Positions 1 to 31,432 are shown, counted from the first letter of the stretch. The stretch is DNA of 64,000 nucleotides from Candidatus Anderseniibacteriota bacterium (GCA_046350855.1 JAXLZM010000005.1:9331-73330); one strand, 5' to 3'. The notes: a model not told the origin generated them from the letters alone. Program-made: numbers and translations.

Positions 1-1
1 C

Positions 2-928
2 TTTGATCTGCCCCGGACCTCCGACGAAAAAGTCGAGGACATCATCCGCACCAACATCGTGGCGCTCAAGGCGCTGATCGGCATCATGATCGGCCGCCTC
101 ACCCCCGAGGAAGACGCCTTGCTCGATCGCGCCCTCTACGACACCTACGCCAAAAAAGACATCACTCCCAACACCCAGAGTTTAGTTGAGGTGGAATTTC
201 CACTCATGCAGGACTTGCAAGAAGTCTTGGCCTCGACCGAGGGGTCTGAGAGTCTTGCCACGCGTCTGGCCAAGTTTACCGAGGGTACCTTTGCGGGGTT
301 GTTCAACAAGCCGACTAATGTGCAGATCAAAAAGCAGCTCGTGACCTTTAACATCCGCGACTTGGAGGATGAACTCCGACCGATTGGTATGTTCCTGGTG
401 CTCAACTTTATGTGGAACACCGTCCGGGCTGAACTCAAAAAGCGCATCCTGGTAATTGATGAAGCCTGGTGGATGATGCAGTACGAGGACAGCGCGCGCT
501 TTTTGTTCTCGATCGCTAAGCGGGCACGTAAGTACTACTTGGGCGTGACGACTATCTCGCAAGACGTGGCCGACATGTTGGCCTCCGACTTTGGTCGCGC
601 GGTCGTGTCCAACTCCTCGATCCAGATGCTGTTGCGACAATCGCCCTCGACCATCGATCAAATTCAAGAAGTGTTCCACCTGACTGATGGCGAAAAATTC
701 TTGCTACTTGAGAGCGATGTTGGAGAGGGAATCTTTTTTGCTGGACTCAAGCACGTCGCCATCAAAGTGGTCGCCAGCTACAGCGAGGACCAGATCATCA
801 CCTCCGACCCCAAACAGATCCTCGAGATCGAAAAAGCGAAGCGTGACTTTGCTGCTGAGGAGGAGCAAGGGGGCGCGCAACAAGCAGAGCCACCGGTTGA
901 GCCAGCGGGCGGCCCAGGAGGTGCCTAG
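2..928 (+). CDS. VirB4/TrbE/CagE-family type IV secretion ATPase, C-terminal fragment (gene continues upstream of window)
   Basis: Reading frame is open from base 2 with no upstream stop. It contains ILVIDEAWWMM (the VirB4 DEAW Walker-B-region motif) followed by RKYYLGVTTISQ (RK..TQ motif) and a C-terminal fold pattern typical of VirB4. Confidence 0.75.
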   Translation, partial: FDLPRTSDEKVEDIIRTNIVALKALIGIMIGRLTPEEDALLDRALYDTYAKKDITPNTQSLVEVEFPLMQDLQEVLASTEGSESLATRLAKFTEGTFAGLFNKPTNVQIKKQLVTFNIRDLEDELRPIGMFLVLNFMWNTVRAELKKRILVIDEAWWMMQYEDSARFLFSIAKRARKYYLGVTTISQDVADMLASDFGRAVVSNSSIQMLLRQSPSTIDQIQEVFHLTDGEKFLLLESDVGEGIFFAGLKHVAIKVVASYSEDQIITSDPKQILEIEKAKRDFAAEEEQGGAQQAEPPVEPAGGPGGA

Positions 929-3009
929 TGCGCACGCGGGCGGTCGGAGTACCGGTTTTGTTAGCGATTTTGTTGAGCAGTTTGCTCACGCTCGGTTTGC
1001 CGTTGCGCTCCTCGGCCCAACTCGAAAAAGACAACGACAGCGATGCCTACGATCAAGAAACCTGTAACGGCGTCTCGGAGGACGAGATGGAGGCCACCAA
1101 AGATGGTGCGGTCGAAAATCCCTTTGGGCCGATCGATTTACCGGGCAGCTCCTCTCGTAACGGCGGTAACGATCCGGATGCCTTTAGTCCTTTTCCTAAT
1201 GGGAGCTTTCAGCTGCCCTTTGAATTAGACTTTGGTGGCCAACAGGGAGGTGGCGGCGGTGGAGGAGGGGGTGGCCAAGCTTTTTCGTTTGTTCCGACCT
1301 ACACCAGTGACGAGGATAAACGGGTCAACGCTTCCTTTTACCCAGAGCCACAAGTCTCGCTGCAATTGGCCGATCCGACCGCCGTCCAGGGCGAGGAGGT
1401 CACCGCGACCGTCCAATATGACAGTTTTGCCGATCAGAGTGTTCCGGGACAAAACTTTTACACGGTCGCCTTTGTGGACGGTGTGTTTCTTAACGGCCAC
1501 ATGGCGGGTGGTAGCGCAGAAGCCCTCCAAGAGCTCAGTGTCGGTGGCGGCGGAGCGCGCGGGGACTGCAGTACGGTGAGCCGCAAGACGCAGAGCGACT
1601 CCGATGGTGATGGGATGGACGACGATTGGGAGATTCGCTACGGCCTCAACCCCAACGACCCGGGGGATGCCGGACAAGATCCGGATAAGGATGGCTACCT
1701 AGCCAACAATTTTATTAATCTCGATGGCGAGGCGGTTCAGCCCGCACCTCCAATTGCCGGGGCAGAGCTCGGGGATGGCAGCTTTAGCAACTATGAGGAG
1801 TACGTCTTGGATACCGACCCGCGCAATCCGGATACGGATGGAGATGGCACGCCCGATGAGGCGGATGCGGTTGGTTTGGGTCAGAGCGTCATCAAGTTTC
1901 CGGCCACCAAAACGCTGGGAGAACCGGCCTACAACCTGCACGTCATCGTTGTGGGGCGCACCCAAAAGAAGAACGAGGACGGTGACACGTTGATCAAGAT
2001 TGATTCGGCCACGCGCCAAGTCCAGACCGGCACGCGCGAGAACCTCCAAGTGCAATTGCAGTTACTCTCGGCTGCCGCCCCTGGCCAGACTTTGGTCGTG
2101 ACCTCTGAGCCCACCGGCACCGATCAGCGTGATTTACTCAATACCTACCGCTGGTCGATCGCTGGGCAACTCAACACCCAATCCAGCGGCCAAGGTCGTC
2201 GGACCCTCGAGTACCCTATCGATCGGGGAGTAGCAGTCGGCACCAAACTCCCTATTACTCTCGAGCTGATTAACAGCAAGACTGGGCAACTTGCTAAGGG
2301 TGCTCTCGATGTAGTGGTCGGCGACACGGTCTTGCTCAACTACGATCCGCTTACGGTCGAACAAAACGGTACAGCTCAAATCCAAGCACTGCTAACCGCC
2401 GAGCAACCGCGCGACGATTTTTTGTTCAACTGGACGGTTAACGATCAGCTCGTGCCAACCGCCTCGCGAGTAGGCGCTGATACGTTTGATTTGCCCATAG
2501 CTGGTCGGGGTGGCCAAGAACAAACGGTCAGCGTGACGGTCTATCGCACCTCTGACAGTGCCTTGATCGGCCAGAGTATGACCACACTCACCGTGCTTGA
2601 ACCAAGCGTGCAACTGGTGCTTACACCCGAGCAGCCCCGTAGCGGCGATCACCCGGTCTTGGAGATCACGGCCCAACATTTTGGCTCTAATACGCTCCAG
2701 TACTCCGCAACCGTAGATGGCAAAAAGCTCGAGACGACCGGCCCCTTAGTCAGCTTGCCCGCGGTCACCCAAGGAGAACACCATTTGGCGGTGACCGTGC
2801 GTTCGACCGAGACACCCGCCAGCGTCGCTAACGCGGAGCTTGTCTTTAACGTCACCGGTGCAGTCGTGATTAGCGCCCGTTCACGTACACCCAACGTGCA
2901 AGCGAGCTTGGTCAGCACTCCAGTTTTGGGAGCTGCCTCAGCCATCGCAGTGGGAGTCATTATGCTGGTCTTGGTCTATAGCAACCGCACTAAAGCCCAT
3001 CCCGCATGA
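928..3009 (+). CDS. Tail-anchored secreted/surface protein with thrombospondin type-3-like Ca-binding repeats, paralog 1 of 3
   Basis: Has an N-terminal signal peptide, a CNGVSEDE motif, a Gly-rich tract, DSDGDGMDDDWEIRYGLNPNDPGDAGQDPDKDGY and DTDPRNPDTDGDGTPDE (DxDxDG-type repeats), and a C-terminal TM helix. Start overlaps the upstream stop; ATGA coupling to the next gene. Confidence 0.7.
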   Translation: MRTRAVGVPVLLAILLSSLLTLGLPLRSSAQLEKDNDSDAYDQETCNGVSEDEMEATKDGAVENPFGPIDLPGSSSRNGGNDPDAFSPFPNGSFQLPFELDFGGQQGGGGGGGGGGQAFSFVPTYTSDEDKRVNASFYPEPQVSLQLADPTAVQGEEVTATVQYDSFADQSVPGQNFYTVAFVDGVFLNGHMAGGSAEALQELSVGGGGARGDCSTVSRKTQSDSDGDGMDDDWEIRYGLNPNDPGDAGQDPDKDGYLANNFINLDGEAVQPAPPIAGAELGDGSFSNYEEYVLDTDPRNPDTDGDGTPDEADAVGLGQSVIKFPATKTLGEPAYNLHVIVVGRTQKKNEDGDTLIKIDSATRQVQTGTRENLQVQLQLLSAAAPGQTLVVTSEPTGTDQRDLLNTYRWSIAGQLNTQSSGQGRRTLEYPIDRGVAVGTKLPITLELINSKTGQLAKGALDVVVGDTVLLNYDPLTVEQNGTAQIQALLTAEQPRDDFLFNWTVNDQLVPTASRVGADTFDLPIAGRGGQEQTVSVTVYRTSDSALIGQSMTTLTVLEPSVQLVLTPEQPRSGDHPVLEITAQHFGSNTLQYSATVDGKKLETTGPLVSLPAVTQGEHHLAVTVRSTETPASVANAELVFNVTGAVVISARSRTPNVQASLVSTPVLGAASAIAVGVIMLVLVYSNRTKAHPA

Positions 3010-5036
3010 GTAAGCGTCTGACACAGTTTGCCGTCTTGCTGATCGTCCTCACCCTGGCGCTCGGAGTACCGCGTCTCTCGCGTGCGACCGACCAGGATGA
3101 TTTGAGCGACGCACACGGTCAGGGTCCCTATGATGAGGTCTCCTGTAACGGTGCCAGTGAGGATGAACTCGACACGGGGGACCCGGCCGAGGATTTCTTT
3201 CCGCCTTTTCAGTTTGATACCAATGAACAGCACAACGACGGAGGTGGTTCGTTTACGGGGCAATACACCTTTCCGTTTAGCGACCAAGAAGTCTTTCAGT
3301 TGTTCAATCGGCGCTCCGAGCAGGCCACCGAGCCGCACGTCAATGTCACGATCGCACCTACCGAGGTCGAACCCGGCCAACCCGTCAGTCTGATCGCAAG
3401 CCTGGCCGACTTTAAAGACAACGGCAGCGCGCAAAACCTACAGTACGCAGTGGGGTTCTCGGTCGATGAGATCAGTCTGCAGGGCATTATGGCCGGTGGT
3501 AAAAAATTGCCGGAGAGTCCGACCGGCTCAAGCTGTGGACTGGTGACCCGTACACCCCAGGTGGATGGCGATGGCGACGGCATGGATGACAACTGGGAGG
3601 CCGCACACGGCCTCAATCCGACCGACCCGAGTGATGCCTTTGCGGACCCTGACAACGACTCGGCTGCGCAGTTTTATACCAACGGGGATGACGAGGAGCT
3701 CCAGGTTACGCCCGAGACGGCCGGTGGCCCAACCGGCGTCATGAACAACCTGGCCGAATTTACCTTTGACACTGACCCTAATCGGGCCGATACGGATGGC
3801 GACAGCATTACCGACGGTATGGAGATTATCGGGTTTGGTGGGCCGGCCGTTACCTTTAGTATCGAGCGACCGGTTGGTTCTGCCGTACAGGTACGCGCCT
3901 TTGCGGTGGGGGTCTCGGCCAAGCAAGATGCCGAGCAAGAGTTTAAAAATATCGTCAAACTCGATTCTTCGACCCGCACCTTTTTTATCAGCAATGGGGA
4001 GCACCTCAAGGGCCAGACTAAGACCCTCGAAGCCTTTACCGCGCCGGGCCAGACCGCTGTGATCGAGGCCCAGTTTGTCGGTTCCGAGGCCGAGCCTGAC
4101 TCCTTTGCCTATAGCTACGAGGTAGACGGTCAAGAGATCACTAATCCATCGCCCGCGCGCCATCGTTTGGAGGTTGCGGTCGATCCGACTCGGACACCCG
4201 GCACGACCATTCCGTATCAGATCGAAGCGGTCAACCCGGCTACCGGACAACTCGCGACCATGCGGGGGGTGATCCAGGTAGGGGAGCACCTGACCCTTGA
4301 GACCGATCCGGTCGAACCCGTCGCAGGTGGGCCGGTCACGGTGCGGGCGGTGTTGGCCTCGGGCCAAGATCCATTGCACTACTTGTACGAGTGGTCGCTC
4401 AACGATCAATTGGATGAACAAGCCTCTGGTATTGGCCGTAACGCGATCGAATTGACCGCTCCGGCGGCAAGTGGTGACGCGGTCACGGTGAACCTACGTT
4501 TGTTTTTAGTCGACACCAGTCAGCTGGTGGGGCAGGCGGCGTTGGATCTAGCGGCCAGTACACCGAGCGTAGCGCTCGAGGTGATCCCCGAGTCTCCCAA
4601 GCCTGGCGAGACCGTCACGGTCTTTGCACGGCCTAAGAATTTTCCGGTCAACTTTGATAGTGACGGCAACGGTGACAACGATGCGACACTACTTCGCTAT
4701 AGCTGGAGTGTGGATGGGAGCGAGCAACCCGTGCAGGAGAGCGCGGCGGGGTTCTCGAGCATCACTCTACCGGCGGGTGACCTCAATCAACAGCACAGTC
4801 TGAGTGTCCAGGTGCGCTCTGTCGGGGCTCACAGTGAGACGGCCGGAGCCGAGGCGAGCTTTACGACCGGGGTGGGCGTGACCGCTATCTCCGCACGGGC
4901 CCGAGCTGCGGGAGAAACTCTCTTGGCCTCGCTGGGTTCGGCCTTTCCACGCTACGGTGCGGCGGTGATTGCAGCCCTTGGTGTTGTCTCGCTACTCGGT
5001 TTGGCCTACTGGGGTCGCACACGGAGGACCGCATGA
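3006..5036 (+). CDS. Tail-anchored secreted/surface protein with TSP3-like repeats, paralog 2 of 3
   Basis: Has a signal peptide and the shared motifs CNGASEDELD, FFPPFQFD, VDGDGDGMDDNWEAAHGLNPTDPSDA and DTDPNRADTDGDSITDG, plus a C-terminal TM helix and basic tail. ATGA overlaps at both ends. Confidence 0.7.
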   Translation: MSKRLTQFAVLLIVLTLALGVPRLSRATDQDDLSDAHGQGPYDEVSCNGASEDELDTGDPAEDFFPPFQFDTNEQHNDGGGSFTGQYTFPFSDQEVFQLFNRRSEQATEPHVNVTIAPTEVEPGQPVSLIASLADFKDNGSAQNLQYAVGFSVDEISLQGIMAGGKKLPESPTGSSCGLVTRTPQVDGDGDGMDDNWEAAHGLNPTDPSDAFADPDNDSAAQFYTNGDDEELQVTPETAGGPTGVMNNLAEFTFDTDPNRADTDGDSITDGMEIIGFGGPAVTFSIERPVGSAVQVRAFAVGVSAKQDAEQEFKNIVKLDSSTRTFFISNGEHLKGQTKTLEAFTAPGQTAVIEAQFVGSEAEPDSFAYSYEVDGQEITNPSPARHRLEVAVDPTRTPGTTIPYQIEAVNPATGQLATMRGVIQVGEHLTLETDPVEPVAGGPVTVRAVLASGQDPLHYLYEWSLNDQLDEQASGIGRNAIELTAPAASGDAVTVNLRLFLVDTSQLVGQAALDLAASTPSVALEVIPESPKPGETVTVFARPKNFPVNFDSDGNGDNDATLLRYSWSVDGSEQPVQESAAGFSSITLPAGDLNQQHSLSVQVRSVGAHSETAGAEASFTTGVGVTAISARARAAGETLLASLGSAFPRYGAAVIAALGVVSLLGLAYWGRTRRTA

Positions 5037-7078
5037 GACGGTTTGTGTTGAGTTTGCTCGTCGTGCTCGTTGCAGGATTTTCTACCCTTGGTGGCCTGCT
5101 CCCGCTCCTGGTGCCACAAAAAGCCCAGGCCGTGCAAGCCCCAGAAAACGACGATATTTTTGATGTGGAGGCGTACAACGGAGCTCGCGAGGACGAGTTG
5201 ACTACCCGCCCCTTGGGCGAGTTCTTTCCGCCTTTTGATTTTAACTTTAGCTACAACTTTGACGTGGATGTCTCGGGAGGGGGCTTGTTTGGAGGCGGCG
5301 CCAACGCTGACGTCAACACTGATTTGCAATCCATTTTGCAGCCGCTCTTTACACCGCAAGAACAGTTCCAAAAACAGAGCAGCCGCTTTGAACCACCCCG
5401 GGCCAACATCACCCTCTCCACGGCCGGGATCCAGCCCGGAACGCAGCTCTCCGCTACCGCGCAGCCGCAATCGTTTAAGCAACAGGGCAGCGGCGAGGAC
5501 TTATTTTACGCCTGGGCTTTGGATACCGTCTCGCTCTCGGGGGTCGCGGCCGGGGCTGATCCGCTCGATCTCCCGCAAGCGTCCTCGCCGCGGGCCACGC
5601 ACTCTCGTGCAACTAAAACGGACAGCGATGGCGACGGAATGGACGACGATTGGGAGGTTCGCTATGGACTCAATCCCAATGATCCAAGTGATGCGGGGCA
5701 AGATCCCGATAGCGACGGCTACACTAACGACGTCTATAAAAACGAGAGCGGCGAGGTTTTGATTGTCGAACCCGCCACCTCGGCAGGACCGGCAGGCGGA
5801 CCCCTCACCAACCTCAAGGAGTACATTTGGGGCACCGATCCCCGTAATCCCGACACCGATGGCGATGGCTTTAGCGACGGCCAGGACATTGCCGGCTTGG
5901 GCCAGACTCAGATTTCGTTGACGGTTCCACCGGATGCCTCGGTTAACGATGCGCCAGTTTTGCGACTCACGATCTTGGGTCACTCACTCCAGGCCTTTGA
6001 ACAAGACAAGCCGCTCGTCAAACTCGACTCCAACACGGTTACGCTGACCGTGCGCGATGCCGAAAAACTTGATGTGCGCCTCGAGGCCAACAACGACGCG
6101 CCCGTGCCAGGGCAGGACGTCACACTCACGGCCACGCTTGGTCGTACGGATTTTCAGCCGGGGATTTTGTCCTACACCTGGTTTGTTAACAACGTGCCGC
6201 AGCAGGACGCCTCGGGGGAGAGTAAGTTCACCTATACCTACACTGTGCCAGAGACGGCTCAGCCGGGTGACGTAGTGTTGTTTAGTGTCACGGCGGTTAA
6301 CTTTGAGACCCGCCAGCAAGCCGAGGCGGAGCTCGAGATCCGTGTGGGAGAACTCGTGCAGCTCCAGTACGATCCGCAAAAAGTGGAGAGCGGTAAGGAT
6401 CTGACCGTGACCGCCACGATGGTCAATAACGCCGACCCAACCGATCTGGTGTTTCACTGGTCATTGGATGACCATGAACTCGACGATCAATCCGGTCAGG
6501 GTAAAACCTCGTTGACCGTGCCCATCCCCAAAGGTACGGGAGAAAAACACACCGTGGGCGTGCGCGTCACAACCCCCGAGGACTCAGCCGCTTTTGCCGA
6601 TAGCCAGACGACCTTGGAGGTGGCCCAACCCGCCATCAGCCTGGTCGTGGATCCGACCGCGGTCGCGCTGGGTGGTACCGTCACGGCCGTGGCCGTGCCG
6701 GAGCACTTTGCCTCGAGCGATTTACAGTTTTCTTGGACCATCGACAGCCAGCCCCAGCAGACCCAACCGAGCGAGAGTTCAATCGTGATTACAGCCAGTG
6801 ACTCCGGGACCCATACCGTTGGGGTACGGGTCCAGTCGGTGGGGCAGGGGGCCGAGAGTGCCACGGCCAGCGCTAGTTTTACCGTGGCGACTACCGCAGA
6901 GACGGCCTTGTCGGCCCCGGCCGGGTCTGGTGGTACTACTGCACCAGCTACCACGGTCGCCTCGGTGCGCCAGGCTTTTTTTGGTCGTCCGCTCAGCCTG
7001 GGGATCTTTTTTGGAGCGTTCTTTGTAGTGCTTGGTATAGTTACTGCGTTACTCATTCGCCGCAATGCGCTTTCTTAG
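5033..7078 (+). CDS. Tail-anchored secreted/surface protein with TSP3-like repeats, paralog 3 of 3
   Basis: Has a signal peptide, YNGAREDELT, FFPPFDFN, KTDSDGDGMDDDWEVRYGLNPNDPSDAGQDPDSDGY and GTDPRNPDTDGDGFSDGQD, plus a C-terminal TM helix (GIFFGAFFVVLGIVTALLIRRNALS). Confidence 0.7.
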   Translation: MRRFVLSLLVVLVAGFSTLGGLLPLLVPQKAQAVQAPENDDIFDVEAYNGAREDELTTRPLGEFFPPFDFNFSYNFDVDVSGGGLFGGGANADVNTDLQSILQPLFTPQEQFQKQSSRFEPPRANITLSTAGIQPGTQLSATAQPQSFKQQGSGEDLFYAWALDTVSLSGVAAGADPLDLPQASSPRATHSRATKTDSDGDGMDDDWEVRYGLNPNDPSDAGQDPDSDGYTNDVYKNESGEVLIVEPATSAGPAGGPLTNLKEYIWGTDPRNPDTDGDGFSDGQDIAGLGQTQISLTVPPDASVNDAPVLRLTILGHSLQAFEQDKPLVKLDSNTVTLTVRDAEKLDVRLEANNDAPVPGQDVTLTATLGRTDFQPGILSYTWFVNNVPQQDASGESKFTYTYTVPETAQPGDVVLFSVTAVNFETRQQAEAELEIRVGELVQLQYDPQKVESGKDLTVTATMVNNADPTDLVFHWSLDDHELDDQSGQGKTSLTVPIPKGTGEKHTVGVRVTTPEDSAAFADSQTTLEVAQPAISLVVDPTAVALGGTVTAVAVPEHFASSDLQFSWTIDSQPQQTQPSESSIVITASDSGTHTVGVRVQSVGQGAESATASASFTVATTAETALSAPAGSGGTTAPATTVASVRQAFFGRPLSLGIFFGAFFVVLGIVTALLIRRNALS

Positions 7079-7481
7079 ACTTTCCACTATTAGTACAAGC
7101 GTCAGCCTGAGCGTAGGCCTGTTCTTGGGTGCGACTCCCTTGGTGACGCACGCCCAGCAGCAAACCGATGCTTTTTGCATCAATCAAGCTTTTTATGCGC
7201 GCATCAGCCAGTACTACAACCTGGCGGTAGCCTTTGCGATTTTGGCGGCCATTTTTATGATCGTCTATGGCGGCTATCGCTTGGTCGTCTCGATCGGTCG
7301 CCCCGGTCTCATCGAGCAGGGCAAAAAGATGATCCAAAATGCCCTCATTGGTCTAATCATTGCGATCGTCTCGGCCGTGATCTTAAACATCCTCAACCCG
7401 CGCATTCTCAACCAAAATGGTGAACAGTGCGGCGCCGCCCCCAGTGCACTACATATTCAGACGGAGGTACTCTCAGCATGA
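7065..7481 (+). CDS. Small pilin-like protein (VirB2/TrbC-like topology: signal peptide plus two hydrophobic helices)
   Basis: 138 aa. Signal peptide ends THA/QQ. The mature part has helix LAVAFAILAAIFMIVYGGY, a basic loop IGRPGLIEQGKKMIQ, and a second helix ALIGLIIAIVSAVILNIL. It lies directly after the VirB4-like/surface-protein cluster. Confidence 0.5.
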   Translation: MRFLRLSTISTSVSLSVGLFLGATPLVTHAQQQTDAFCINQAFYARISQYYNLAVAFAILAAIFMIVYGGYRLVVSIGRPGLIEQGKKMIQNALIGLIIAIVSAVILNILNPRILNQNGEQCGAAPSALHIQTEVLSA

Positions 7482-8785
7482 GACGCTCGTATTTTTTCTT
7501 GATCGTAATCGTGGGAGGTATTCTGGCCGTCTTGACCACGCTCTTTTTTGTCTTTGACAACCCCTATCGCCGTCTCAACCCTGAGCCAACTCCCGTCGTT
7601 ACGGCCCCAACCCTGGACGATCAGCTGCCACCCAGTGCGGGCGAGGCCACCGACACCGAGTTGATCACCGTCCTGGAGCTACCGACCATTGGGTTGACCA
7701 CAGGGGTGGATGGACTGCGCTTAGTATTTTACGACAAGGACTCCAGCAAGATCGAAGTGACCGAGTTTGACGGCACCGGCCTACAAGAACTCTCCGACAC
7801 ATTGCTCGGGGTCGAGGCCATGGAGTTGTCTCCCGCCAAAGACAAGGCCTGGATGCGCTTGACCGACCCAGAGACCAAAGACCTAATCACACTGGTCTAT
7901 GACTTTAGGGCTAAAGAGGCGGTTCGGCTAGAGAATGGGATCAAGGCGATTGACTGGTCACCGGACGGGAGTGAACTGCTCTACTACGTCGACCGCAGCG
8001 GTAGCGCCCCGGCCCTCAAGCGCGTCAAAGCTAACGGCGTCGAGCCGCGTACCGTGCGCCAGGGCTTTACCGTACAAAACCCGGTCTTGGCCTGGTATGC
8101 CGAGGATCAGCTGGCCTATTGGCTGAGTCCCTCCTCGACCCGTCCGTCCTCCATCATCACGATGAACCTCTCTGGTAACAATGCCGTCGAGTTGGCCGCC
8201 ACGGCCCCTGCCGCCCAAGCTCTTTTTTCACCCGACGGCACCTACGCTCTGCTCGCCCAAAACAACCCCACCACCGGTAAGCCGCAACTTGCTCTCAGCA
8301 CGACCGCCGACCGTACCACTAGTGCCTTGCCGTTGACCACCTGGCTCGATAAGTGCACCTGGATGAACGACAGCGCCCGCATCCTCTGTTTTGTCCCGCG
8401 CGATCTGCCCGGAAACTTTGTCTACCCTGAGAGTGACACTGGAGCCAACGCCTACCGTGACCAGCTCTGGGTTATCGATGCCGCTACCGCCAAACCACAA
8501 TTGATTTACGACGTGCCGGGCTCGATCACGGACGCGACCAAGCCCTTTGCCTCCACCAACGGTAGCCGGCTGAACTTTATCTCCCGTGCCAGTGGCACGG
8601 TTGTCAGTCTGGAACTCGCCGATAAATTAGTGGCGCCCACCACGCCCAACGCTTCCACCAACCTGATCACTCCCGCCGGTGCCACGACCGCTCCCGGTAC
8701 GAGCTCGAGCTCAGGCGGGAGCGGTTCTGGTACGGGCAGTCTGCCAACCGGCAGTAGCACCAGTGGCTCAGGCACGACTTATTAA
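7478..8785 (+). CDS. Membrane-anchored WD40-like (PD40/TolB-type) beta-propeller protein with Ser/Gly/Thr-rich C-terminal tail
   Basis: ATGA overlap with the upstream gene. Has an N-terminal TM anchor and repeated DWSPDGSELLYY / FSPDGTYALLAQ PD40-like motifs. Start chosen at MRRSYFF (7478) rather than the 7427 ORF start. Confidence 0.6.
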   Translation: MRRSYFFLIVIVGGILAVLTTLFFVFDNPYRRLNPEPTPVVTAPTLDDQLPPSAGEATDTELITVLELPTIGLTTGVDGLRLVFYDKDSSKIEVTEFDGTGLQELSDTLLGVEAMELSPAKDKAWMRLTDPETKDLITLVYDFRAKEAVRLENGIKAIDWSPDGSELLYYVDRSGSAPALKRVKANGVEPRTVRQGFTVQNPVLAWYAEDQLAYWLSPSSTRPSSIITMNLSGNNAVELAATAPAAQALFSPDGTYALLAQNNPTTGKPQLALSTTADRTTSALPLTTWLDKCTWMNDSARILCFVPRDLPGNFVYPESDTGANAYRDQLWVIDAATAKPQLIYDVPGSITDATKPFASTNGSRLNFISRASGTVVSLELADKLVAPTTPNASTNLITPAGATTAPGTSSSSGGSGSGTGSLPTGSSTSGSGTTY

Positions 8786-8802
8786 TTTTGAGTAAAAGAA
8801 AA

Positions 8803-8828
8803 GGGCCACAGGATGAATCCTGTGGCCC
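8803..8828. terminator. Hairpin between convergent genes (bidirectional terminator candidate)
   Basis: Hairpin gggccacagg-atgaat-cctgtggccc. A T-rich run follows on the minus-strand reading, and an A/T-rich tract precedes it on plus. Confidence 0.5.
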
Positions 8829-8854
8829 AGTAAATAGCGAGGTTCTCGCTTAGG

Positions 8855-9322
8855 TTATCTCAACTGACGAGCCAAGTTGTTGGCCTGGCGGGTCTGTCGA
8901 GCTTGATGTCGCTTGAGCTCCTCCTTGTTGTAGGTCTCACGCGTCAGCCGCGCAGCCTGTTGCCCTCTCGTGGTCATCCGGTGTTCCACCCGGTTGCCCA
9001 GGTTCTCCACCGGATCCGTTGCCGCGATCACACTGGAGGTGATCGCGTACAGTCCAGGGTGCTGGAGCAACAGCTTGGCAGCACGGTTGTCCTGCAGGAT
9101 GACCTTGTACCTCTCGGTGATCTCCTTGAAGTCCCGGTTGGCCTCCGCCGTATACGGCATGACGATGTGTCGCCGATACGGTGCAAGCCGGTGAAAGAGC
9201 TCCTCCGCGACCAAGAGTTGGTTCTCTCGTTTTTCTGCCAACTCTTTGAGTTGTAGCGGTGTTTTGAGACGCAGTTCACGCTTTGTGGGCGTGACCAGGT
9301 GCAGTGCACTTGAACCTTCCAT
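8855..9322 (-). CDS. Hypothetical protein
   Basis: 155-aa ORF bounded by the hairpin terminator. No recognisable domain. Confidence 0.45.
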   Translation of the reverse strand: MEGSSALHLVTPTKRELRLKTPLQLKELAEKRENQLLVAEELFHRLAPYRRHIVMPYTAEANRDFKEITERYKVILQDNRAAKLLLQHPGLYAITSSVIAATDPVENLGNRVEHRMTTRGQQAARLTRETYNKEELKRHQARQTRQANNLARQLR

Positions 9323-9389
9323 TGCTACCTCTAGTACCTAGCCGAACCTTGCCAACGTGTGGATTGCTCGATAGGGTCTCCTTTCCGGG

Positions 9390-9977
9390 TTACTTTTCGA
9401 CATGTAGATGGCAACGTTGTCGTGCCGGACCGTAGTGCTGGCACTCCGCGTCGTCAAAGACATGTCGTAGGATTTCGCTCTCACACACTTCGCACTTGTT
9501 GTGGCCGGCAGAACTGGCCAGCCAGATGAGCGCAGCGAGTCGGTCGAGACCGGGTTTTCCGGCGTGTGGCCATTCGACGAGTGACCAGGTCAGTGCCACG
9601 ATCCGATCAGTCTTGAGACAGCGTCGTTGTAGTTCATCCTGAACCAGATCGAGATCTGCAAAAGGACTGTCGGGGGCCGGCTCAAAGTGGGCAAACAAAT
9701 CGATCGGCAGGGTCTCACTCCAAAACGTGCTCTTGTCGATGCGGGGTCGATCGATCGTGTACGAATCCTCCTGTATGGAGAGGACTCCGACGATTTGCCC
9801 GGGCAGGTACTCAAAGCTGGAGTGTACCTTAGTAAGGTGCTCGACGATTTGGGGACTCTCGTTAACCTTTTTAAAGGTCGCGAGGCCAATGAGACGGTGA
9901 GGATAGTGAGGTGCCGTTTTTTGTTCGATAGTAGTGACACCGCCCGGAAGAACCCGGAGCGGTTTAGTGCTCAGCAT
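9390..9977 (-). CDS. Hypothetical protein with C-terminal Cys/His cluster (putative zinc-binding)
   Basis: ORF trimmed to the internal ATG (MLSTKPL) to avoid overlap with the recG 3' end. C-terminal HNKCEVCESEILRH...CQH...C pattern. Confidence 0.45.
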   Translation of the reverse strand: MLSTKPLRVLPGGVTTIEQKTAPHYPHRLIGLATFKKVNESPQIVEHLTKVHSSFEYLPGQIVGVLSIQEDSYTIDRPRIDKSTFWSETLPIDLFAHFEPAPDSPFADLDLVQDELQRRCLKTDRIVALTWSLVEWPHAGKPGLDRLAALIWLASSAGHNKCEVCESEILRHVFDDAECQHYGPARQRCHLHVEK

Positions 9978-10086
9978 GGTTGGTCTCCCTTGGGTTGGGT
10001 GCCTTGTGTGTATATGGGCTTGGTAAAGGGCGGCGGAACAGCGACCGGAGATTCTGCAACAGTTATTCGCGTAGGTCAAGTCTACT

Positions 10087-12177
10087 TTACTCGAGGTGCA
10101 ACTGCGTGGCAACGCGACCGACTCGCTGTTTGAGGAGCGGCCACTGACGTAGGCTCGGATCGGCCTGGAGTACGGCCACGGCGGCCTCTTTGGCCTGGGC
10201 TAAAATTCGTGAATCGAGGACCGTCGCAAACTTAAAACTGACCTGACCATGTTGGCGAGTACCAAACGGTTCACCCGGACCGCGTAGCTCGAGATCCGCC
10301 TCAGCTAGGCGAAACCCATCGTTGGTGGTGCAGAGGAGTTGCAGACGCTTGCGGGTCTCGGGGGTGGCGGCATCCGGTACCAGCAAACAGAGCGAGGCTT
10401 TACTGCCGCGGCCGACCCGACCGCGGATCTGGTGCAGCTGAGCCAGTCCAAAACGGTCCGCACTCAGGACAACCATCAGTGTGGCGTTAGGGATGTCGAT
10501 CCCGACCTCGATCACGGGGGTGGTAGCGAGCACCTGGTAACGGCCGGCCCTAAAGTCTCCGATCACTTGGTTTTTTTCTTGGTCGCTCATGCGACCGTGC
10601 AACAAGCCAACCCTGATTGGTTGAGGGGCGCTGCCGAGCTGTTTTTGTAATTCTGCGTACTCTGCTAAGACTGCCCGGGCTTGTAACTTGTCACTCGCCT
10701 CGATGAGCGGGAACATCACAAAAACCTGTTGGCCGCCCGCCACGGTTTTTTTAATCGTCTTGAGTAAGGTTGTGTGCGCTTTTTTTGGAACAATTTTGGT
10801 GGTGATTGGGGCGCGTCGCTTAGGTTTTTGATCGAGGACCGAGAGATCCAGATCACCGTAGAGGGTGAGAGCCAGGGAGCGGGGGATCGGTGTAGCGGTC
10901 ATGGAGAGCAAGTGTGGTAAATGATTGGGTAAACGCACTTTGGTCTTAAGGAGCTGCCGCTGTTTGACCCCAAAACGGTGCTGCTCATCTACAACGACGA
11001 GGTGTAATTGTTTAAAGGTAACGCGCGGCTGCAAAATGGCGTGCGTGCCGACCACCACCGAGAGCGTGCCAGCCGCGAGTTGTTTTTTGAGGGCTACGGT
11101 CTCGGCTGAACTACTCACCAGGAGCGCCACCGTGATGCCAAACGGTTTGAGGAGCGTCGTCAGGGTCGTGTAATGCTGCTCGGCCAAGATCACGGTTGGT
11201 GCTAAAACCGCCGCTTGACCACCACTGCGTGCCACCGCCAGTAAGGCCATAGCCGCGACTACGGTTTTCCCCGAGCCAACGTCGCCCTCAAGCAGGCGGT
11301 TCATGGGGTGAGGCTTGGCGAGGTCTTGCACGATTTGCCAGGCTGCTTTGCGCTGCGCGTCGGTCAGTGTATAGGGGAGCTTGGCGACAAACTCTTGTAG
11401 GAGCTCCGGTACGACCGGAGTAGGGCGCGCCTGCACCTGGATCAGGGAGGCCCGCTCGCGTAAGACAAAGAGAGAGAGCAAAAACAGCTCTTCAAAAGTC
11501 ATACGCAGGCGCGCCCGGTCCAAGGCCTCTGGGTTCGACCCCGGAAAATGCAATTGTGTGAGCGCCAGGCTACGGTCGAGCAGGTCGTACCGCTTGCGTA
11601 CACTCGGCGGTACCACATCGGGGGTGTGCTGGACCGTTTGCAAGGCCTGCTTGATCCAGTACCGCATTTGCTTAGTCGTGATCCGCCCGGTCAGGGGATA
11701 GATCGGCTGCAGCGCCCCCTTACCAAGGGCGATGGCCGGATCACGCACCACCTCCGGGCTCTCCAACGTCAGTCGACCCTTGTAGCGACTAATCTTGCCA
11801 CGTAAAAAAGCGATCTTGCCCGCGAGTGCCTCCACCAGGTACGGCTGGTTGAACCAGGTTACCGCGAGACTACCTGTCTCATCATTGAGCAACCCCTCTT
11901 GGATGGTTAGTCGTCGCCTAAAACTGCGTCGATTGGTAATCGAGACTACTTGCGCACAAATGAGAACCGGCTGTCCGTTAGCCCCGGTCGGTATACCGAT
12001 CGACCCAATCGAAACCGGTCGACCGTAGTGCTCGTGGCGGCGGGGGAGATGTTCGGCCAACTCTTGTACGGTCCGGATACCCAAGGTTTGTAACTCACGC
12101 ACCGCGGCGGGTCCCACACCGTGCAGACGTGAGACTGGGTCGCTGGGTACTACACGCTGAGTCAGGGTTACGGACAT
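10087..12177 (-). CDS. recG: ATP-dependent DNA helicase RecG
   Basis: GDVGSGKT Walker A, DEQHRFGV Walker B, wedge/OB N-domain and C-terminal RecG helicase motifs. Start trimmed to MSVTLTQ (12177) so it does not overlap the tRNA. Confidence 0.9.
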   Translation of the reverse strand: MSVTLTQRVVPSDPVSRLHGVGPAAVRELQTLGIRTVQELAEHLPRRHEHYGRPVSIGSIGIPTGANGQPVLICAQVVSITNRRSFRRRLTIQEGLLNDETGSLAVTWFNQPYLVEALAGKIAFLRGKISRYKGRLTLESPEVVRDPAIALGKGALQPIYPLTGRITTKQMRYWIKQALQTVQHTPDVVPPSVRKRYDLLDRSLALTQLHFPGSNPEALDRARLRMTFEELFLLSLFVLRERASLIQVQARPTPVVPELLQEFVAKLPYTLTDAQRKAAWQIVQDLAKPHPMNRLLEGDVGSGKTVVAAMALLAVARSGGQAAVLAPTVILAEQHYTTLTTLLKPFGITVALLVSSSAETVALKKQLAAGTLSVVVGTHAILQPRVTFKQLHLVVVDEQHRFGVKQRQLLKTKVRLPNHLPHLLSMTATPIPRSLALTLYGDLDLSVLDQKPKRRAPITTKIVPKKAHTTLLKTIKKTVAGGQQVFVMFPLIEASDKLQARAVLAEYAELQKQLGSAPQPIRVGLLHGRMSDQEKNQVIGDFRAGRYQVLATTPVIEVGIDIPNATLMVVLSADRFGLAQLHQIRGRVGRGSKASLCLLVPDAATPETRKRLQLLCTTNDGFRLAEADLELRGPGEPFGTRQHGQVSFKFATVLDSRILAQAKEAAVAVLQADPSLRQWPLLKQRVGRVATQLHLE

Positions 12178-12213
12178 AGGCAACAGTGTACACCGCACTA
12201 CTTGGTGCGGCAC

Positions 12214-12290
12214 TGGTGTGCCCGGGAGGATTCGAACCTCCGACCCCCAGCTCCGCAAGCTGATGCTCTAATCCACTGAGCTACGGGCAC
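12214..12290 (-). tRNA. tRNA-Arg (anticodon GCG read from loop TTGCGGA)
   Basis: Cloverleaf GTGCCCGTAGCTCAGTGGATTAGAGCATCAGCTTGCGGAGCTGGGGGTCGGAGGTTCGAATCCTCCCGGGCACACCA on the minus strand, with encoded CCA. Confidence 0.8.
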
Positions 12291-12324
12291 GAGATGTATG
12301 TGCGTGTGCTGGAAGTTCTGCCAA

Positions 12325-12564
12325 TTAGAGCTTAAACGTCCGCGCCACCAGATCCACGTGACTTTCTTCTTTACTGGGATCTTCGGGCAACAATGGTAAC
12401 AGGATGTCGCGGATTTTCAAGGGGTTCTCGTTGAGCAGCTCAATAGACAGCTCGTTGATCACCCGCGTGCGGCGTTGCAAGTGGAGTTGTTTGAGGGTGG
12501 GTGGTTCATACAAAATCCAAAATTTGGAGAACTCACGCCAGGGGTAGAACTGCTCGTTGAGCAT
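12325..12564 (-). CDS. Small hypothetical protein
   Basis: 79-aa ORF following the tRNA. No domain recognised. Confidence 0.3.
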   Translation of the reverse strand: MLNEQFYPWREFSKFWILYEPPTLKQLHLQRRTRVINELSIELLNENPLKIRDILLPLLPEDPSKEESHVDLVARTFKL

Positions 12565-12656
12565 GAGTCCCAGACTAAAAAGCGTACGCGCAGACGTTTG
12601 TTTTTACGGTGACACTGGTAAAAAGGACCAAGGCGAGGTGAGCCAAGACGGCAGCA

Positions 12657-14422
12657 CTAAGGTAGAGACGCAGGACGATCGTGAGGGCCACCAGACCGGC
12701 AAAGACGCCGACAATATATTGATAAACCAACCGCGTAGCGCGCCGCGGTTGAGTGAACTCTCACCTGTAAATGGGAACACCCCGCTGGGCCGCGGACTGC
12801 GTATCGCCGTTTTTGGCCCTTTCGATCAGACGACCGCCTTCCGTCGATGACGGGTTGCCCGCTACCGTCTCGCTCATGGCGCGATTGGGCGCTCCAGGAG
12901 TGATGGTTTGGGCGTTGACCTGCTTGGTAAGATTGGCCGTGCCTTGCCCGGTGGCGGCAGCGGCTCAGGCTTTTTTTTACGATTAAAATGAGGCCCATGG
13001 CGCGTTTGGTTTAGCATGGCTTAGCGCCGACTTGCCGAGACCGCAGTGCCGCCCGCGACGATAGTGGTATGGTTGACCCTGCTCGGGGCTCGTAGAGCGC
13101 GTTTGGGTAACTCGGGCACAATCGTGAACTGGTAAGGATTTCAGCGAAACTGACCTGTTCGATCGCGTCTAACTCTTTGCGCTGGTCTGGGGTCGTCGCA
13201 ACGAGATGGCATGACCACCCGCCCCGGTCGGGCGCAGGGTTCGCTGGGTGCGGCACGTAGTCCCTTAGGTGTTAGTGGGTAACCAAAGCCGAGCACGAGC
13301 TCGAACCCGGTCACGTCGATGCCGCGCGAGGCGATGTCCTCACGGCGACCAAGACTCGGTACTTACCATCAGCGCCCGCCAGCGCGTCGCGGCGTTGTCC
13401 GAGGGAGCGGTTGGCGTAACTCGGCTGCGGTGTGGCCGAGATCACGGATCTTACGGGTCAGTTTTTTGGCACCGTACAATTTCAGGTGTGTAAAGATCAG
13501 CGTTGTGCCGCGGTACTTCGTATATTTGGCTGCGAGATCCAACTTAGACTCTTTTAAACATAAAGATTTCTTGGGTAACGCGCTCGGCGGTGAGCCTGCG
13601 GGGCTACCTCGATACGGATCGGTAGCCGCATGTAGCGCTTGGCCATACGCATGATTTGTCCGGCACGGTGGCCGAGAACAGTACAGAAGGTCTGTCGCTC
13701 GTAGGCTGCTCAGAAAACTGTTCGATCTGCGGGCAAACCCCATATCGAGCATACGATCAGCCTTACTCAACACGACGATCCGCGTGGCGTCTAAGCACCG
13801 TTCTTTGTTGTAGGTGATCGTTGAGCTGACCGCGTTGTTGAGGATCACGACGTGCGGATTTTTGCAGGCAGCGCACCGTTAGTGTCCGCATCGAGGCGCC
13901 TCCGATTAGACCGCCGTGCGCAGCCAAAATCCGGCGCCGACTGTACGTGGAGCGCCTCGTCCACTTGCAGAGCGAGTTCCCGAGCTGGCAGGATGATCAA
14001 CCTGGACCGCGCGCACTTTATCGAGCTGCAGCAGCGGGATCCCGGGTGCGCCAAGGTTCAACGGTGCTGTCGGCAATGCCGTCTACATCTTTACCTTCGA
14101 TCGCCACGGGAATAGCCTGCCGCGTTGACGGGCGTGGGGGTGGCGTAGTTGAGTTGTGCGAGTTTACCGAGGAGGGTTTTGCGCGATGCCGAGTCCCGAA
14201 AATCCAGAAATGGCAAGGGCTGATACTGCACTAGCTGACGATACTGGTACTGGTTGAACAAAGTTCGAAGAAAAGAGAGCTACCGATGTTCCGGTAGCTC
14301 AGGTCGTGTTGTGGGTCTGACTTAGGCGGCGTAGGCGCGTCGCCGTCGCCGCAGCAGGGCGAGCGGCTCGCGAGTGGCGAGAGAAAGAGCTCCAGTGCCT
14401 CCTGGTCGTTGTGCCTGACCAC
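12657..14422 (-). pseudogene. Degraded DEAD-box RNA helicase (frameshifted, catalytic motifs mutated)
   Basis: Consecutive minus-strand ORF fragments carry, in order, AHPGSRCC (motif I GSGKT ruined), LIILPARELALQV (motif Ia), VVLSKADRMLDMGF (motif II DEAD changed to SKAD), LVATTPDQRKELD (motif V remnant) and CRHRARHGQ (motif VI remnant). They are split over at least five frames. Confidence 0.6.
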
Positions 14423-21276: not shown

Positions 21277-22023
21277 CTATCCAATGGCGGCATGGGCAAG
21301 TGTAGCGGCCCTAATGCTCGCAATGCCGGCGGCTTGCAAGGTCATGGCGCAGGTCTCGAGTGTCGCTAAGCTGGTGGCCACATCATCGATAAGTAAAACG
21401 CCACGTCGCTTTGCGTCGACGAGGTCTTGTTTTTTTGAGATGCCATACACCCCCTTGAGACTCTTACGGCGTGCCAAAATGCCTAATTCTTTTTGGCTGG
21501 CAGAACGAGTTCGTCCTCGAGTGAGCAATGGCTGGTAATCGAGTTTGAGTTTGTGGGAGACGTACCGCGCGAGTAGTTCTGCCTGATCAAAACCGCGTAT
21601 GCGCTTACGCTTAGTGCTGCAGGGGATTGGTACGACGATGGGCCGCACATTCTTTGGAAGATTTGCTTGCAGTGCGCCGCACAACCGTGTGCCAAGTAGC
21701 CGCGAGAGGTCTCGTCGGCCACGCTCTTTGTAGCCTGCTAAAACTCGGTGAAAGACACGCGACTCATAGCTACAAGCGCAGATGAGTTGCGCGAGCGGCA
21801 CGCAAAGCTCGGTGCAATTGCTGCAGCGCAGGCCGTGCTCGCTCGGTTGTAGGCAGCTTGGACAAACCAGTTCTTGAGCAGGTGCGAGTTCTAAGTTGCA
21901 GCTTCTACAGAGACCAACTGCATCGCGACCGCAGCCAATGCAGATAGGTGGACTGATGTATTCGGTGCAATAGCGGAGTGCTTCTTTGGCGTTTGTGCGA
22001 GCGATCGCGAAGAGGCGGTTCAC
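21277..22023 (-). CDS. comFC: ComF-family protein (double zinc ribbon plus phosphoribosyltransferase domain)
   Basis: N-terminal CxxC..CxxC pairs and a C-terminal PRTase motif VLLIDDVATSLATLETCA. Confidence 0.75.
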   Translation of the reverse strand: MNRLFAIARTNAKEALRYCTEYISPPICIGCGRDAVGLCRSCNLELAPAQELVCPSCLQPSEHGLRCSNCTELCVPLAQLICACSYESRVFHRVLAGYKERGRRDLSRLLGTRLCGALQANLPKNVRPIVVPIPCSTKRKRIRGFDQAELLARYVSHKLKLDYQPLLTRGRTRSASQKELGILARRKSLKGVYGISKKQDLVDAKRRGVLLIDDVATSLATLETCAMTLQAAGIASIRAATLAHAAIG

Positions 22024-30124: not shown

Positions 30125-30299
30125 GAGTTGTAGTGCTACTAGTGGGCTCGATCTCTGATCGAGCCCCTCTTTTTGTGCAAGTTGACAAAAGAGCCTTTTT
30201 AGTGTAAGGTGTGTGTTTGCTCTTTAACTGGTACGTCTAGAACCCGTGGCATGGTGCTGTGGGTTGTCGGACAAGCCAAGTACCAAGGAGAACACTCAA

Positions 30300-30971
30300 A
30301 TGGCAAAGGCCAAGACCGCAAAGAAGAAGTCGGAGACGGCTTCTGCGATCGGTGTGTACGCCAAGATCTGGATCGCGATCGAGGCAGCCGTGCTCGCCAA
30401 GGGCGGCACGTACAACGACCTTTACTCGCTCAGCGAGACCAAGGACGCCACCCTGATCAACAAGTTCGCGGAACTCGTGGTCACCTCCAAGAATGGCGCC
30501 AAGAAGGTTGCCGATAAGGTCGTCGACGTGATGGCCGGTTACCTCCAGCGCCTGACCGTTGCCTGCAACTTCTCGTACGTGTGGGACGGCATCACGGAGG
30601 CTCGCTTCCCGATGCCGACCAAGCCCGTGAGTGAGAAGCTCGAGTACGTGGTCTACTCCATCAAGCAGGCCATGAACCGCGCTGAAATCATCGCTGCCAT
30701 GGCTGCCGAGGGACTGCGGCCCGCCACCCTGTACGAACTGCTGGTCTGGGCTGCCAAGAACCCGCTCGAAGGCACTCAGTACTGGGTGGTTGCTCTTGAG
30801 CAGTACTTCACGGATTCCGGCGGCAGCCTCGACTTCGCCTACATCAACCCCTATGGCTACGGCAGGCGCGAGCTCGACTACGGCTGGATCAACCGCCTCA
30901 GCGATCGGTGGAGCGCCGACGGTCGTTTTCTCGCCGTCCGCAAGTCGAGCGACGAGCCCTTGGCCACTTAG
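30300..30971 (+). CDS. DGR target (variable) protein with C-terminal VR
   Basis: AAGGAG 8 nt upstream of the ATG at 30300. The C-terminal 144 nt equal the TR except at TR adenines. Confidence 0.8.
   Translation: MAKAKTAKKKSETASAIGVYAKIWIAIEAAVLAKGGTYNDLYSLSETKDATLINKFAELVVTSKNGAKKVADKVVDVMAGYLQRLTVACNFSYVWDGITEARFPMPTKPVSEKLEYVVYSIKQAMNRAEIIAAMAAEGLRPATLYELLVWAAKNPLEGTQYWVVALEQYFTDSGGSLDFAYINPYGYGRRELDYGWINRLSDRWSADGRFLAVRKSSDEPLAT
30804..30947 (+). repeat. DGR variable repeat (VR)
   Basis: 144-nt match to 31278..31421 with 21 differences, every one at a TR adenine. Confidence 0.85.
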
Positions 30972-31277
30972 TTCCTTGGAACTCATAGAGACCACCTGGT
31001 CTCTTGGTTCCCGCCCTCGGAAGACACATGTCTTCCGAGGGTATTTTTTATCTGCTACTATTTTTTGGGATCGCGACTAGTCAGGCTACAGCTTGACCAA
31101 TCAAAATCTCGGTTCATTCTAGGCCAGGATCCCGTCGGTCAAGACTTACGGGAGCGTGCTTGCAGTGAGCCAAATAAAACATGACTTGGTGTAGTTAGTT
31201 GGAGAGCTTGCAGCTCCAAACATAGATTCAGTCGGGAGATATTCAACCGACGGTGACACGGATGGCTTTCTACACAC

Positions 31278-31421
31278 AACTTCACGGATTCCGACGGCAA
31301 CCTCAACTTCGCCTACATCAACCCCAATGGCAACGGCAGGCGCAAGCTCAACTACAACTGGATCAACCACCTCAGCAATCAGTGGAACACCGACAATCGT
31401 TTTCTCGCCGTCCGCAAGAAA
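31278..31421 (+). repeat. DGR template repeat (TR)
   Basis: Invariant A-rich copy (AAC codons) of the VR. Lies between the target gene and avd/RT. Confidence 0.85.
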
Positions 31422-31432
31422 TGTTTTATCTA

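Follow-up and report, generated by a model that had tools for sequence, protein, structure and literature searches.

A Patescibacteria-type type IV secretion operon with three paralogous Ig/TSP3 proteins and an anchored beta-propeller in an Andersenbacteria genome

Introduction

What machine is encoded at the start of a 64,000-nucleotide stretch of DNA from Candidatus Anderseniibacteriota bacterium (GCA_046350855.1 JAXLZM010000005.1:9331-73330; hereafter the window), and which of its proteins might touch another cell? A first-pass annotation, made from the sequence alone, had taken positions 1-8785 for part of a type IV secretion or conjugative-pilus-like surface module. We find that positions 1-8785 of the window make up the distal half of an operon for a chromosomal type IV secretion system (T4SS) of the Patescibacteria type, in an Andersenbacteria genome from the candidate phyla radiation (CPR). 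That the locus is a T4SS is near certain. It is a known kind of T4SS with a lineage-specific accessory set, comprising three paralogs of ~680 amino acids (aa) and a membrane-anchored beta-propeller. The host is a 'Candidatus Andersenbacteria' metagenome-assembled genome (MAG; CPR/Patescibacteria), the third paralog and the propeller being 100% identical to NCBI proteins of such a MAG, on a contig of 79,666 bp.

The T4SSs of Patescibacteria are widespread and chromosomal, and essential in the one species tested; their substrates and contact apparatus are unknown, and reviews call their function unknown (PMC12857230, PMC11665869). In that species, Southlakia epibionticum, a T4SS cluster and pilin array are essential for epibiotic growth, with neither a relaxase nor a coupling protein (Wang et al. 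2023, PMC10633639). A survey of the phylum described a distinct Patescibacteria VirB4 clade related to the mating-pair-formation class MPF-FATA, with TrsD, PrgI, VirB6 and VirB2-like pilins encoded near virB4. The surveyed loci are chromosomal, rarely have relaxases, and often lie near ksgA or, in class ABY1, near recG, radA and comF; in none of them was an adhesin, such as PrgB, detected (Quinonero-Coronel et al. 2025, PMC12102498). The window locus fits this published type point by point, including a recG neighbour and a ComF-like open reading frame (ORF). The presence of a T4SS is not new (published 2023-2025); the three paralogs and the propeller are not described in that literature.

Results

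The operon and its VirB4 ATPase

Plus-strand ORFs form an unbroken series from the window start to position 8785 (ORF listing over 1..14000). The one-operon arrangement proposed by the first-pass annotation was confirmed with its coordinates: the six T4SS genes of the window are intact, lie on the plus strand and overlap at every junction. The virB4 stop and the GTG start of the first paralog (A) have one base in common within TAGTG at 926-930, and the paralogs are in turn coupled by ATGA at 3006-3009 (A/B) and at 5033-5036 (B/C), so that the claimed overlap of the ATPase stop with the first of three coupled ~680-aa paralogs holds. A 14-nt overlap (7065-7078) joins paralog C to the pilin gene, and another ATGA (7478-7481) joins the pilin gene to that of the propeller. 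GC content is even across the window, without a compositional break.

As had been claimed, the window opens inside a VirB4-family ATPase gene. The partial ORF at 2..928 (plus strand) is the 3' part of virB4 and encodes its C-terminal 308 aa, with the Walker B motif DEAW at residue 153 and a RKYYLGVTTISQ motif; the Walker A half lies outside the window. This fragment matched Pfam P-loop_TraG (2.9e-15) and the NCBIfam profiles NF045971 (conju_CD1110, 3e-46), TIGR02746 (TraC-F-type, 8e-30) and TIGR00929 (VirB4_CagE, 4.5e-15), and it shares 95% identity with the C-terminal part of the 712-aa VirB4 from a syntenic relative, locus L002. The full-length L002 ortholog aligned to positions 27-343 of P-loop_TraG and scored 368.7 bits, above the 325 required, on NF045971, 'VirB4-like conjugal transfer ATPase, CD1110 family'. 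Against the PDB, it matched VirB4 of Thermoanaerobacter (4ag5) at 1.2e-44, compared with 3.5e-6 for TrwK and 0.0074 for HerA. An assignment to FtsK/HerA was therefore rejected, and the ATPase groups with VirB4.

The fragment had 3482 homologs, of which the top ones were mostly labelled VirB4/TraC or ATP-binding protein. Among the matches listed, the top homologs were at ~67% identity or less beyond two close relatives, and those with an organism name were mostly CPR/Patescibacteria. In the plasmid database, 2137 of the 2777 VirB4 matches were on conjugative plasmids, and the best relatives there were VirB4/TraC/TraE proteins of Gram-positive (Actinobacteria and Firmicutes) conjugative plasmids, at 30-40% identity. 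Judged by these comparisons of sequence, the VirB4 is of the Gram-positive (CD1110/MPF-FATA-like) kind.

The pilin

The 138-aa product of 7065..7481 (plus strand), encoded within the operon ~6.1 kb downstream of the virB4 stop, is a VirB2-like T4SS pilin. Its candidacy as a pilin of VirB2/TrbC topology was borne out by a Pfam match above threshold (PF18895, T4SS_pilin, 29.6 bits; gathering score 26.6) and by its topology, with a signal peptide whose hydrophobic N-terminus ends at THA|QQQ and two hydrophobic membrane helices at residues 53-71 and 92-110. A comparison with PDB sequences gave no meaningful match. A pilin is encoded in the same position in five related loci (L002, L083, L042, L084 and L085). 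Two of these also have giant 'pilins' of 490-530 aa (L084 9627-11099 and L085 14008-15600), in which a T4SS_pilin core lies between long cysteine-rich extracellular extensions; shorter pilin paralogs adjoin them.

The upstream half in syntenic relatives

The upstream half of the operon lies outside the window, and its gene content was read from the syntenic relatives L002/L086 and L083. Exact-sequence look-ups returned no match for paralogs A, B and C, and for the pilin and propeller nothing but a Logan contig of 6 kb, which ends short of the upstream genes; a DNA-pattern scan of metagenome contigs for the start of L083 had no match. A scan of genome contigs with the paralog alignment, keyed on its thrombospondin type 3 (TSP3) motifs, returned mostly unrelated TSP3 proteins of many phyla, together with four useful loci, L027, L033, L042 and L075.

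In the nearest long relative (L002/L086, an 868-kb contig with paralogs 59-75% identical to those of the window), the operon consists of 12 genes. It is bounded on its 5' side by ksgA (in L086) and encodes, in order, a 328-aa TSP3 membrane protein, a 264-aa secreted protein, a 775-aa polytopic VirB6/TrbL-like protein, a 297-aa soluble protein, PrgI/VirB3, TrsD (a homolog of the VirB4 N-domain), VirB4, paralogs A, B and C, the pilin and the propeller; two small convergent genes and then recG follow. The second relative (L083, a 1.22-Mb contig at ~50% identity) has the same order from the VirB6-like gene on, its upstream end being cut off. The recG end is seen in both, as in the window, and the same flanks are found in genomes that are only 50-67% identical. 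Profile matches in L002/L086, L083 and L085 identified PrgI (PF12666), a TraC-like/TrsD N-terminal VirB4 homolog and VirB6 (PF04610, TrbL/VirB6, 26.9 bits; gathering score 25.9), so that the upstream genes are not unrelated housekeeping genes. The family of the ATPase, the profile of the small protein and the nature of the upstream genes were the points on which the first-pass annotation had said that its T4SS interpretation could fail, and each came out in favour of that interpretation. Its further reading of the locus as a filament or adhesion apparatus is one that we infer.

The proximal half up to VirB4 is also present in another Andersenbacteria locus, L027, and the Saccharibacteria locus L075 has the same series of ORF sizes, with TSP3 and VirB4 matches at the corresponding positions. 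The first operon gene after ksgA encodes a protein with a hydrophobic N-terminal segment and TSP3 motifs (L086 1632-2618, L027 9926-10879), and L075 has a TSP3-matching 354-aa ORF (9779-10843) at the corresponding position; the three products range from 317 to 354 aa. Among CPR T4SS loci, TSP3 calcium-binding motifs are therefore a recurring feature, present in more than one kind of protein.

Three Ig/TSP3 paralogs between virB4 and the pilin gene

Paralog A (928..3009, plus strand; 693 aa, GTG start) consists of a signal peptide, an acidic N-terminal motif, a Gly-rich linker, a beta-sandwich, two TSP3 motifs, an immunoglobulin (Ig)-like stalk and a C-terminal anchor. Paralogs B (3006..5036, plus strand; 676 aa) and C (5033..7078, plus strand; 681 aa), each starting in an ATGA overlap, have the same architecture. 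Pairwise identity among the three is 32-33%, in alignments that cover almost the whole protein (E 1e-68 to 1e-75). Paralog A is orthologous by position to the first gene of the triplets in L002 (59% identity) and L083 (46%), and B to the second (75% and 56%). Each of A, B and C matched the first, second or third gene of L002 and L083, respectively, far better than it matched the other two paralogs.

An AlphaFold2 model was made of paralog C from a 30-sequence alignment (mean pLDDT 78.9). Each paralog has one N-terminal and one C-terminal hydrophobic segment, and in the model both are helical (residues 2-21 and 656-679), which agrees with the signal peptide and C-terminal anchor that had been proposed for each protein. 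The topology is that of type-I membrane proteins. The signal peptide looks cleavable (AQA|V). Next, at residues ~38-68, comes the conserved acidic motif ENDDxFD..YNGxxEDEL..FFPP, from which a disordered linker rich in Gly leads to a helix with a beta-sandwich (105-189). Residues 190-292 form a calcium-binding module whose two DxDxDGxxD motifs are invariant, and residues 293-620 fold into four Ig-like sandwiches; a second disordered linker and the transmembrane helix, which ends in a short basic tail, complete the chain. Fold matches of the model were to Ig-like folds. The columns of the TSP3 and N-terminal motifs are invariant across 30 homologs. The Pfam profile TSP3_bac (PF18884) scored 18.1 bits in A and reached 20.7 bits among the window paralogs, under its gathering score of 25, so that the TSP3-like repeats claimed earlier fall below the Pfam threshold in the window itself; the assignment rests instead on the invariant motifs and on several orthologs that have precomputed PF18884 matches.

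None of the 17 proteins examined has an LPXTG-like motif within its final 80 residues, and no PEP-CTERM motif was found. A sortase- or exosortase-type sorting signal was therefore rejected, and the C-terminus is a plain tail anchor. A tblastn search of 72,556 plasmids gave no match to the paralogs, which, with the survey's lack of adhesins in CPR loci (PMC12102498), agrees with the earlier statement that these large repeat proteins have no counterpart in canonical systems.

Conservation is unevenly distributed along the protein. Among orthologs of paralog C (parC), mean pairwise identity was highest in the membrane-distal parts (TSP3 module 0.71, tip motif 0.63) and lowest in the last, membrane-proximal Ig domain, the linker and the anchor (0.27-0.37). 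This gradient is opposite to that of the usual host-range-variable adhesins, and suggests a conserved partner at the tip.

As the databases sample it, the full-length family is very small. By word-indexed search, 29 full-length relatives (639-705 aa) were found, spread over about a dozen contigs. When 1.84 billion 50%-identity cluster representatives were scanned exhaustively by HMMER with a profile of the Ig stalk, 11 clusters reached E<=1e-30, ten of them of 639-694 aa and the other a 311-aa fragment; below these there is a gap down to generic Ig repeats.

Distribution of the paralog set

Five divergent loci keep the set in its slot between virB4 and the pilin gene, and every member of the family with a readable locus sits in a T4SS operon. 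Size and copy number vary. In the more distant CPR loci L085 (GCA_042570845.1) and L084, the slot between virB4 and the pilins is taken by three paralogs of 931-1021 aa, and the pilins are followed by propellers of 410-416 aa that are homologous to that of the window; L084 continues with radA, directly after the propeller, and recG. In L042 and L033 a single ~1000-aa protein occupies the slot, with pilins and propeller next in L042. No paralog module follows virB4 in L027, so that the copy number among lineages is three, one or none. All of the slot proteins have in common a signal peptide, a TSP3 pair, an Ig-like region, a juxtamembrane 'LAAxxS..P' and a C-terminal anchor; the N-terminal head differs. 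Directly upstream of the single tail-anchored protein in L042 (7999-8670) and L033 (854-1531) lies a gene for an Rce1-like/CPBP intramembrane protease (PF02517, 23.3 bits; gathering score 22.4), which has no equivalent in the window operon. Its position points to possible processing of the C-terminal anchor in those two loci.

The beta-propeller

The last gene of the operon (7478..8785, plus strand) encodes a 435-aa, N-terminally membrane-anchored beta-propeller of about seven blades with a disordered Ser/Thr/Gly-rich C-terminal tail. The alternative start proposed earlier, GTG 7427, would give 452 aa (7427..8785); the ATGA overlap with the pilin gene makes ATG 7478 the most likely start, and the NCBI and Logan calls agree. 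The AlphaFold2 model (pLDDT 81.3, pTM 0.72) has a helix at residues 3-25, a short disordered linker and ~30 strands between residues 62 and 379, and Foldseek matched it to seven-bladed propellers (TMt up to 0.71) and to TolB (E ~1e-11). The membrane anchor and propeller fold that had been proposed thus stand, while the PD40 label falls short of the Pfam threshold (15.4 bits; gathering score 20.9); the propeller call rests on the predicted fold and on orthologs that score above the threshold. Orthology to TolB was rejected. The match to NCBIfam TolB (TIGR02800, 1.2e-4) reached 21.1 bits against a cut-off of 343, the protein has a transmembrane helix and about seven blades, and it shares with TolB no more than the fold class. 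Propeller orthologs lie downstream of the pilin in L002, L083, L042, L084 and L085; their distribution is as narrow as that of the paralogs, and largely on the same contigs.

Conjugation genes

Domain scans that included the 55 kb downstream found no relaxase or type IV coupling protein (T4CP) domain in any window ORF of at least 400 aa, all of these ORFs being housekeeping genes or lacking a T4SS-related match, and the 3.4-kb flank upstream of the L086 operon contains none either. The relaxase search thus does not support a conjugative module. A mobile-element origin was rejected on the even GC content, the lack of relaxase and T4CP in these scans, the ksgA and recG flanks and the absence of a plasmid match to the paralogs. 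Because a relaxase and coupling protein are lacking at the locus and the chromosomal synteny is conserved, the window T4SS is probably not conjugative.

Neighbouring genes

Beyond the operon lies a GC-rich palindromic hairpin (8803..8828), between its convergent end and a minus-strand 155-aa gene. The hairpin is real; the role assigned to it earlier, as terminator of the operon, is not borne out, as it is tail-less for the plus strand. The T-run is on the minus strand, making it a canonical terminator for the convergent 155-aa gene. That gene (8855-9322, minus strand) and the next (9390-10112, minus strand) are hypothetical, have no Pfam match and sit between the operon end and recG; the second is 30% identical to a 222-aa gene at the same place in L002, and gene pairs of similar size occupy the slot before recG in L002/L086 and L083.

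The rest of the window is housekeeping: recG, Clp ATPase, ligA, gatA, rmuC, an AddA-like helicase-nuclease, nrdDG, pheST and gyrB. Several housekeeping genes are broken. A DEAD-box helicase homolog at 13031-14177 has matches in all three minus-strand frames, with no intact ORF of at least 180 aa in 12.3-15.5 kb; nrdD is split into ORFs of 422 and 322 aa (48123-50275) and pheT into ORFs of 563 and 234 aa (53227-55660). These are either indel errors of the MAG or real pseudogenes.

Also present are a ComF-like ORF (21277..22023, minus strand), which matches the double zinc ribbon DZR_2 at 4.2e-5, an ORF for a PilM-like protein of type IV pilus assembly (27102-28043, plus strand; 7.3e-9) and, at 55599-58293, two adjoining probable surface proteins, one with three CWB2 cell-wall-binding repeats (6.5e-37) and the other with a weak BNR-repeat match. 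A diversity-generating retroelement of textbook form occupies 30246-32830. Its variable repeat (30805-30944) lies at the 3' end of a 241-aa ORF (30246..30971, plus strand), its template repeat is at 31279-31418, and its reverse transcriptase at 31832..32830 (Pfam RVT_1, 5.8e-25); in all 16 of the 16 mismatches between the repeats, a template adenine is changed to G or T.

Discussion

The explanation that we consider best, and on balance probable, combines a T4SS platform and pilus with the paralogs and propeller as extracytoplasmic parts, in a machine serving interaction with a host cell over conjugation. VirB6, VirB3, TrsD and VirB4 would form the membrane platform, at which VirB4, using ATP, would extract the VirB2-like pilin from the membrane and drive its polymerisation, giving a short pilus or conduit that crosses the monoderm envelope. 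Each paralog, held by its C-terminal anchor, would project an Ig stalk of ~15-25 nm, stiffened by calcium-bound TSP3 and bearing the acidic motif at its tip. Arranged around or alongside the conduit, the paralogs could be the wall-spanning, contact-making part, and the propeller could act as an extracytoplasmic scaffold. By analogy with the Saccharibacterial system, the machine may serve an episymbiotic lifestyle in which a host cell and its episymbiont exchange protein, DNA or other material.

A more specific proposal is that the three paralogs, possibly with the propeller, form a fixed hetero-oligomeric stalk or collar integral to the T4SS in this CPR branch. We favour such a fixed component over variable adhesins because gene order and one-to-one orthology are kept and the membrane-distal parts are the most conserved. 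The stalk or collar would take the place of missing VirB8/9/10-type or PrgB/PrgC-type parts and present a conserved, calcium-dependent tip toward the host. We hold this proposal only tentatively, and the hetero-oligomeric role is the weakest link of the whole explanation. Several observations weigh against the proposals made so far. The folds of the paralogs are generic adhesion-type Ig domains, unlike any known T4SS part, and some lineages (L042, L033) manage with one copy. The paralogs are also closer to one another within a clade than across clades, and the ~680-aa and ~1000-aa triplets are not matched one-to-one by bit scores; by this resemblance, the two triplications may be independent. 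The upstream T4SS genes are assigned to the window's own genome through the synteny of its relatives, a relaxase or coupling protein could be encoded elsewhere in that genome, and every role in this lineage beyond homology is one that we infer.

Among other explanations, we think it unlikely, though deserving of some weight, that the machine is a ComB-like or Ced-like device for DNA uptake or exchange, the imported DNA being processed by RecG, RadA and ComF functions. The conserved convergent neighbour is recG, which speaks for this, but recG is on the opposite strand in a separate transcription unit. RadA directly after the propeller in L084, the ComF-like ORF of the window and the recG/radA/comF association in class ABY1 (PMC12102498) point the same way, and nucleotide acquisition has been raised as a possible role (PMC11665869); no DNA-binding component was identified in the operon, however, and Southlakia can do without competence (ComEC) but not without its T4SS (PMC12857230, citing Wang 2023). 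The VirB4 does match CedB weakly in NCBIfam (5.7e-9), but at 35 bits against a cut-off of 700. Somewhat less probable again is that the paralogs and propeller are ordinary surface adhesins or envelope proteins, co-transcribed with the machine without being part of it. Their generic Ig-like adhesion domains would suit this explanation, as would the abundance of TSP3 and Ig surface proteins in many bacteria and archaea and the variable copy number, down to none after virB4 in L027. Against it, five divergent loci preserve the slot between virB4 and the pilin gene, with its overlapping codons, the full-length family has very few members, all of those with a readable locus lie in T4SS operons, paralog and propeller matches fall largely on the same contigs, and the distal tip is conserved, not variable.

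We regard as very improbable the remaining explanation, in which the locus would supply mating-pair formation to an integrated conjugative element or a plasmid and transfer DNA by conjugation. The CD1110/TraC type of the VirB4, and the preponderance of conjugative plasmids among its plasmid matches, are what such a module would have. The domain scans of the window and of the L086 upstream flank, the conserved ksgA and recG flanks, the even composition and the paralogs' lack of any plasmid match all speak against it, as does the rarity of relaxases in Patescibacteria (PMC12102498).

Under the preferred explanation, a T4SS with extracytoplasmic paralogs and propeller, these predicted extracellular proteins are, for the Andersenbacteria/ABY1 branch, candidates for that part of the machine which spans the wall or touches the host, and targets for multimer modelling, labelling in electron cryotomography and binding assays. 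If the stalk or collar proposal is true, the structure would count as a T4SS component of a new class and would offer a handle on how episymbionts dock an essential secretion machine.

The pilin and propeller each have recognisable counterparts elsewhere. Like the VirB2/TrbC pilins of Gram-negative T4SSs, the window pilin is small, with a signal peptide and two hydrophobic helices, and its L042 ortholog also has a weak TrbC/VirB2 Pfam match; unlike them, the window protein matches the CPR-rich PF18895 only, and the locus encodes no VirB5-like tip protein or outer-membrane core complex. The propeller has the extracytoplasmic fold of TolB/PD40 propellers, with weak matches to the PD40 and TolB-propeller HMMs. 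It differs from TolB in having about seven blades instead of six, and a transmembrane anchor in place of the TolB N-terminal domain; no Tol-Pal partner genes are present at the locus.

With the Gram-positive MPF-FATA systems (pCF10 Prg/Pcf, CTn2 CD1110-type and pGO1 Trs) the locus has in common the VirB4 family, PrgI, TrsD, a VirB6-like protein and a monoderm envelope. The pCF10 operon encodes the surface proteins PrgA, PrgB and PrgC, a functional analogy to the three paralogs. Unlike PrgB-like adhesins, the paralogs are anchored by a transmembrane helix without LPXTG and are unrelated in sequence, having no plasmid match. The window locus also differs from these systems in that it has no recognisable relaxase, T4CP, VirB1-like hydrolase or VirB8-like protein, and in that it encodes a VirB2-like pilin, which Gram-positive T4SSs lack.

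The closest likeness is to the Patescibacteria systems themselves. The locus of Southlakia epibionticum ML1 (SEML1_0006-0019) likewise has an MPF-FATA-like VirB4, PrgI/VirB3, TrsD, VirB6 and one or more VirB2-like pilins, and it too is chromosomal, lies beside ksgA and contains no relaxase or T4CP. The proximal order of a TSP3 protein, one further gene, VirB6, one further gene, PrgI, TrsD and VirB4 is also that of L075 (Saccharibacteria) and L027. The difference lies downstream of virB4, where peptidase and lysozyme genes and a six-pilin array are reported for the Saccharibacterial system, whereas the window operon has a single pilin, placed after three ~680-aa Ig/TSP3 proteins and before an anchored propeller.

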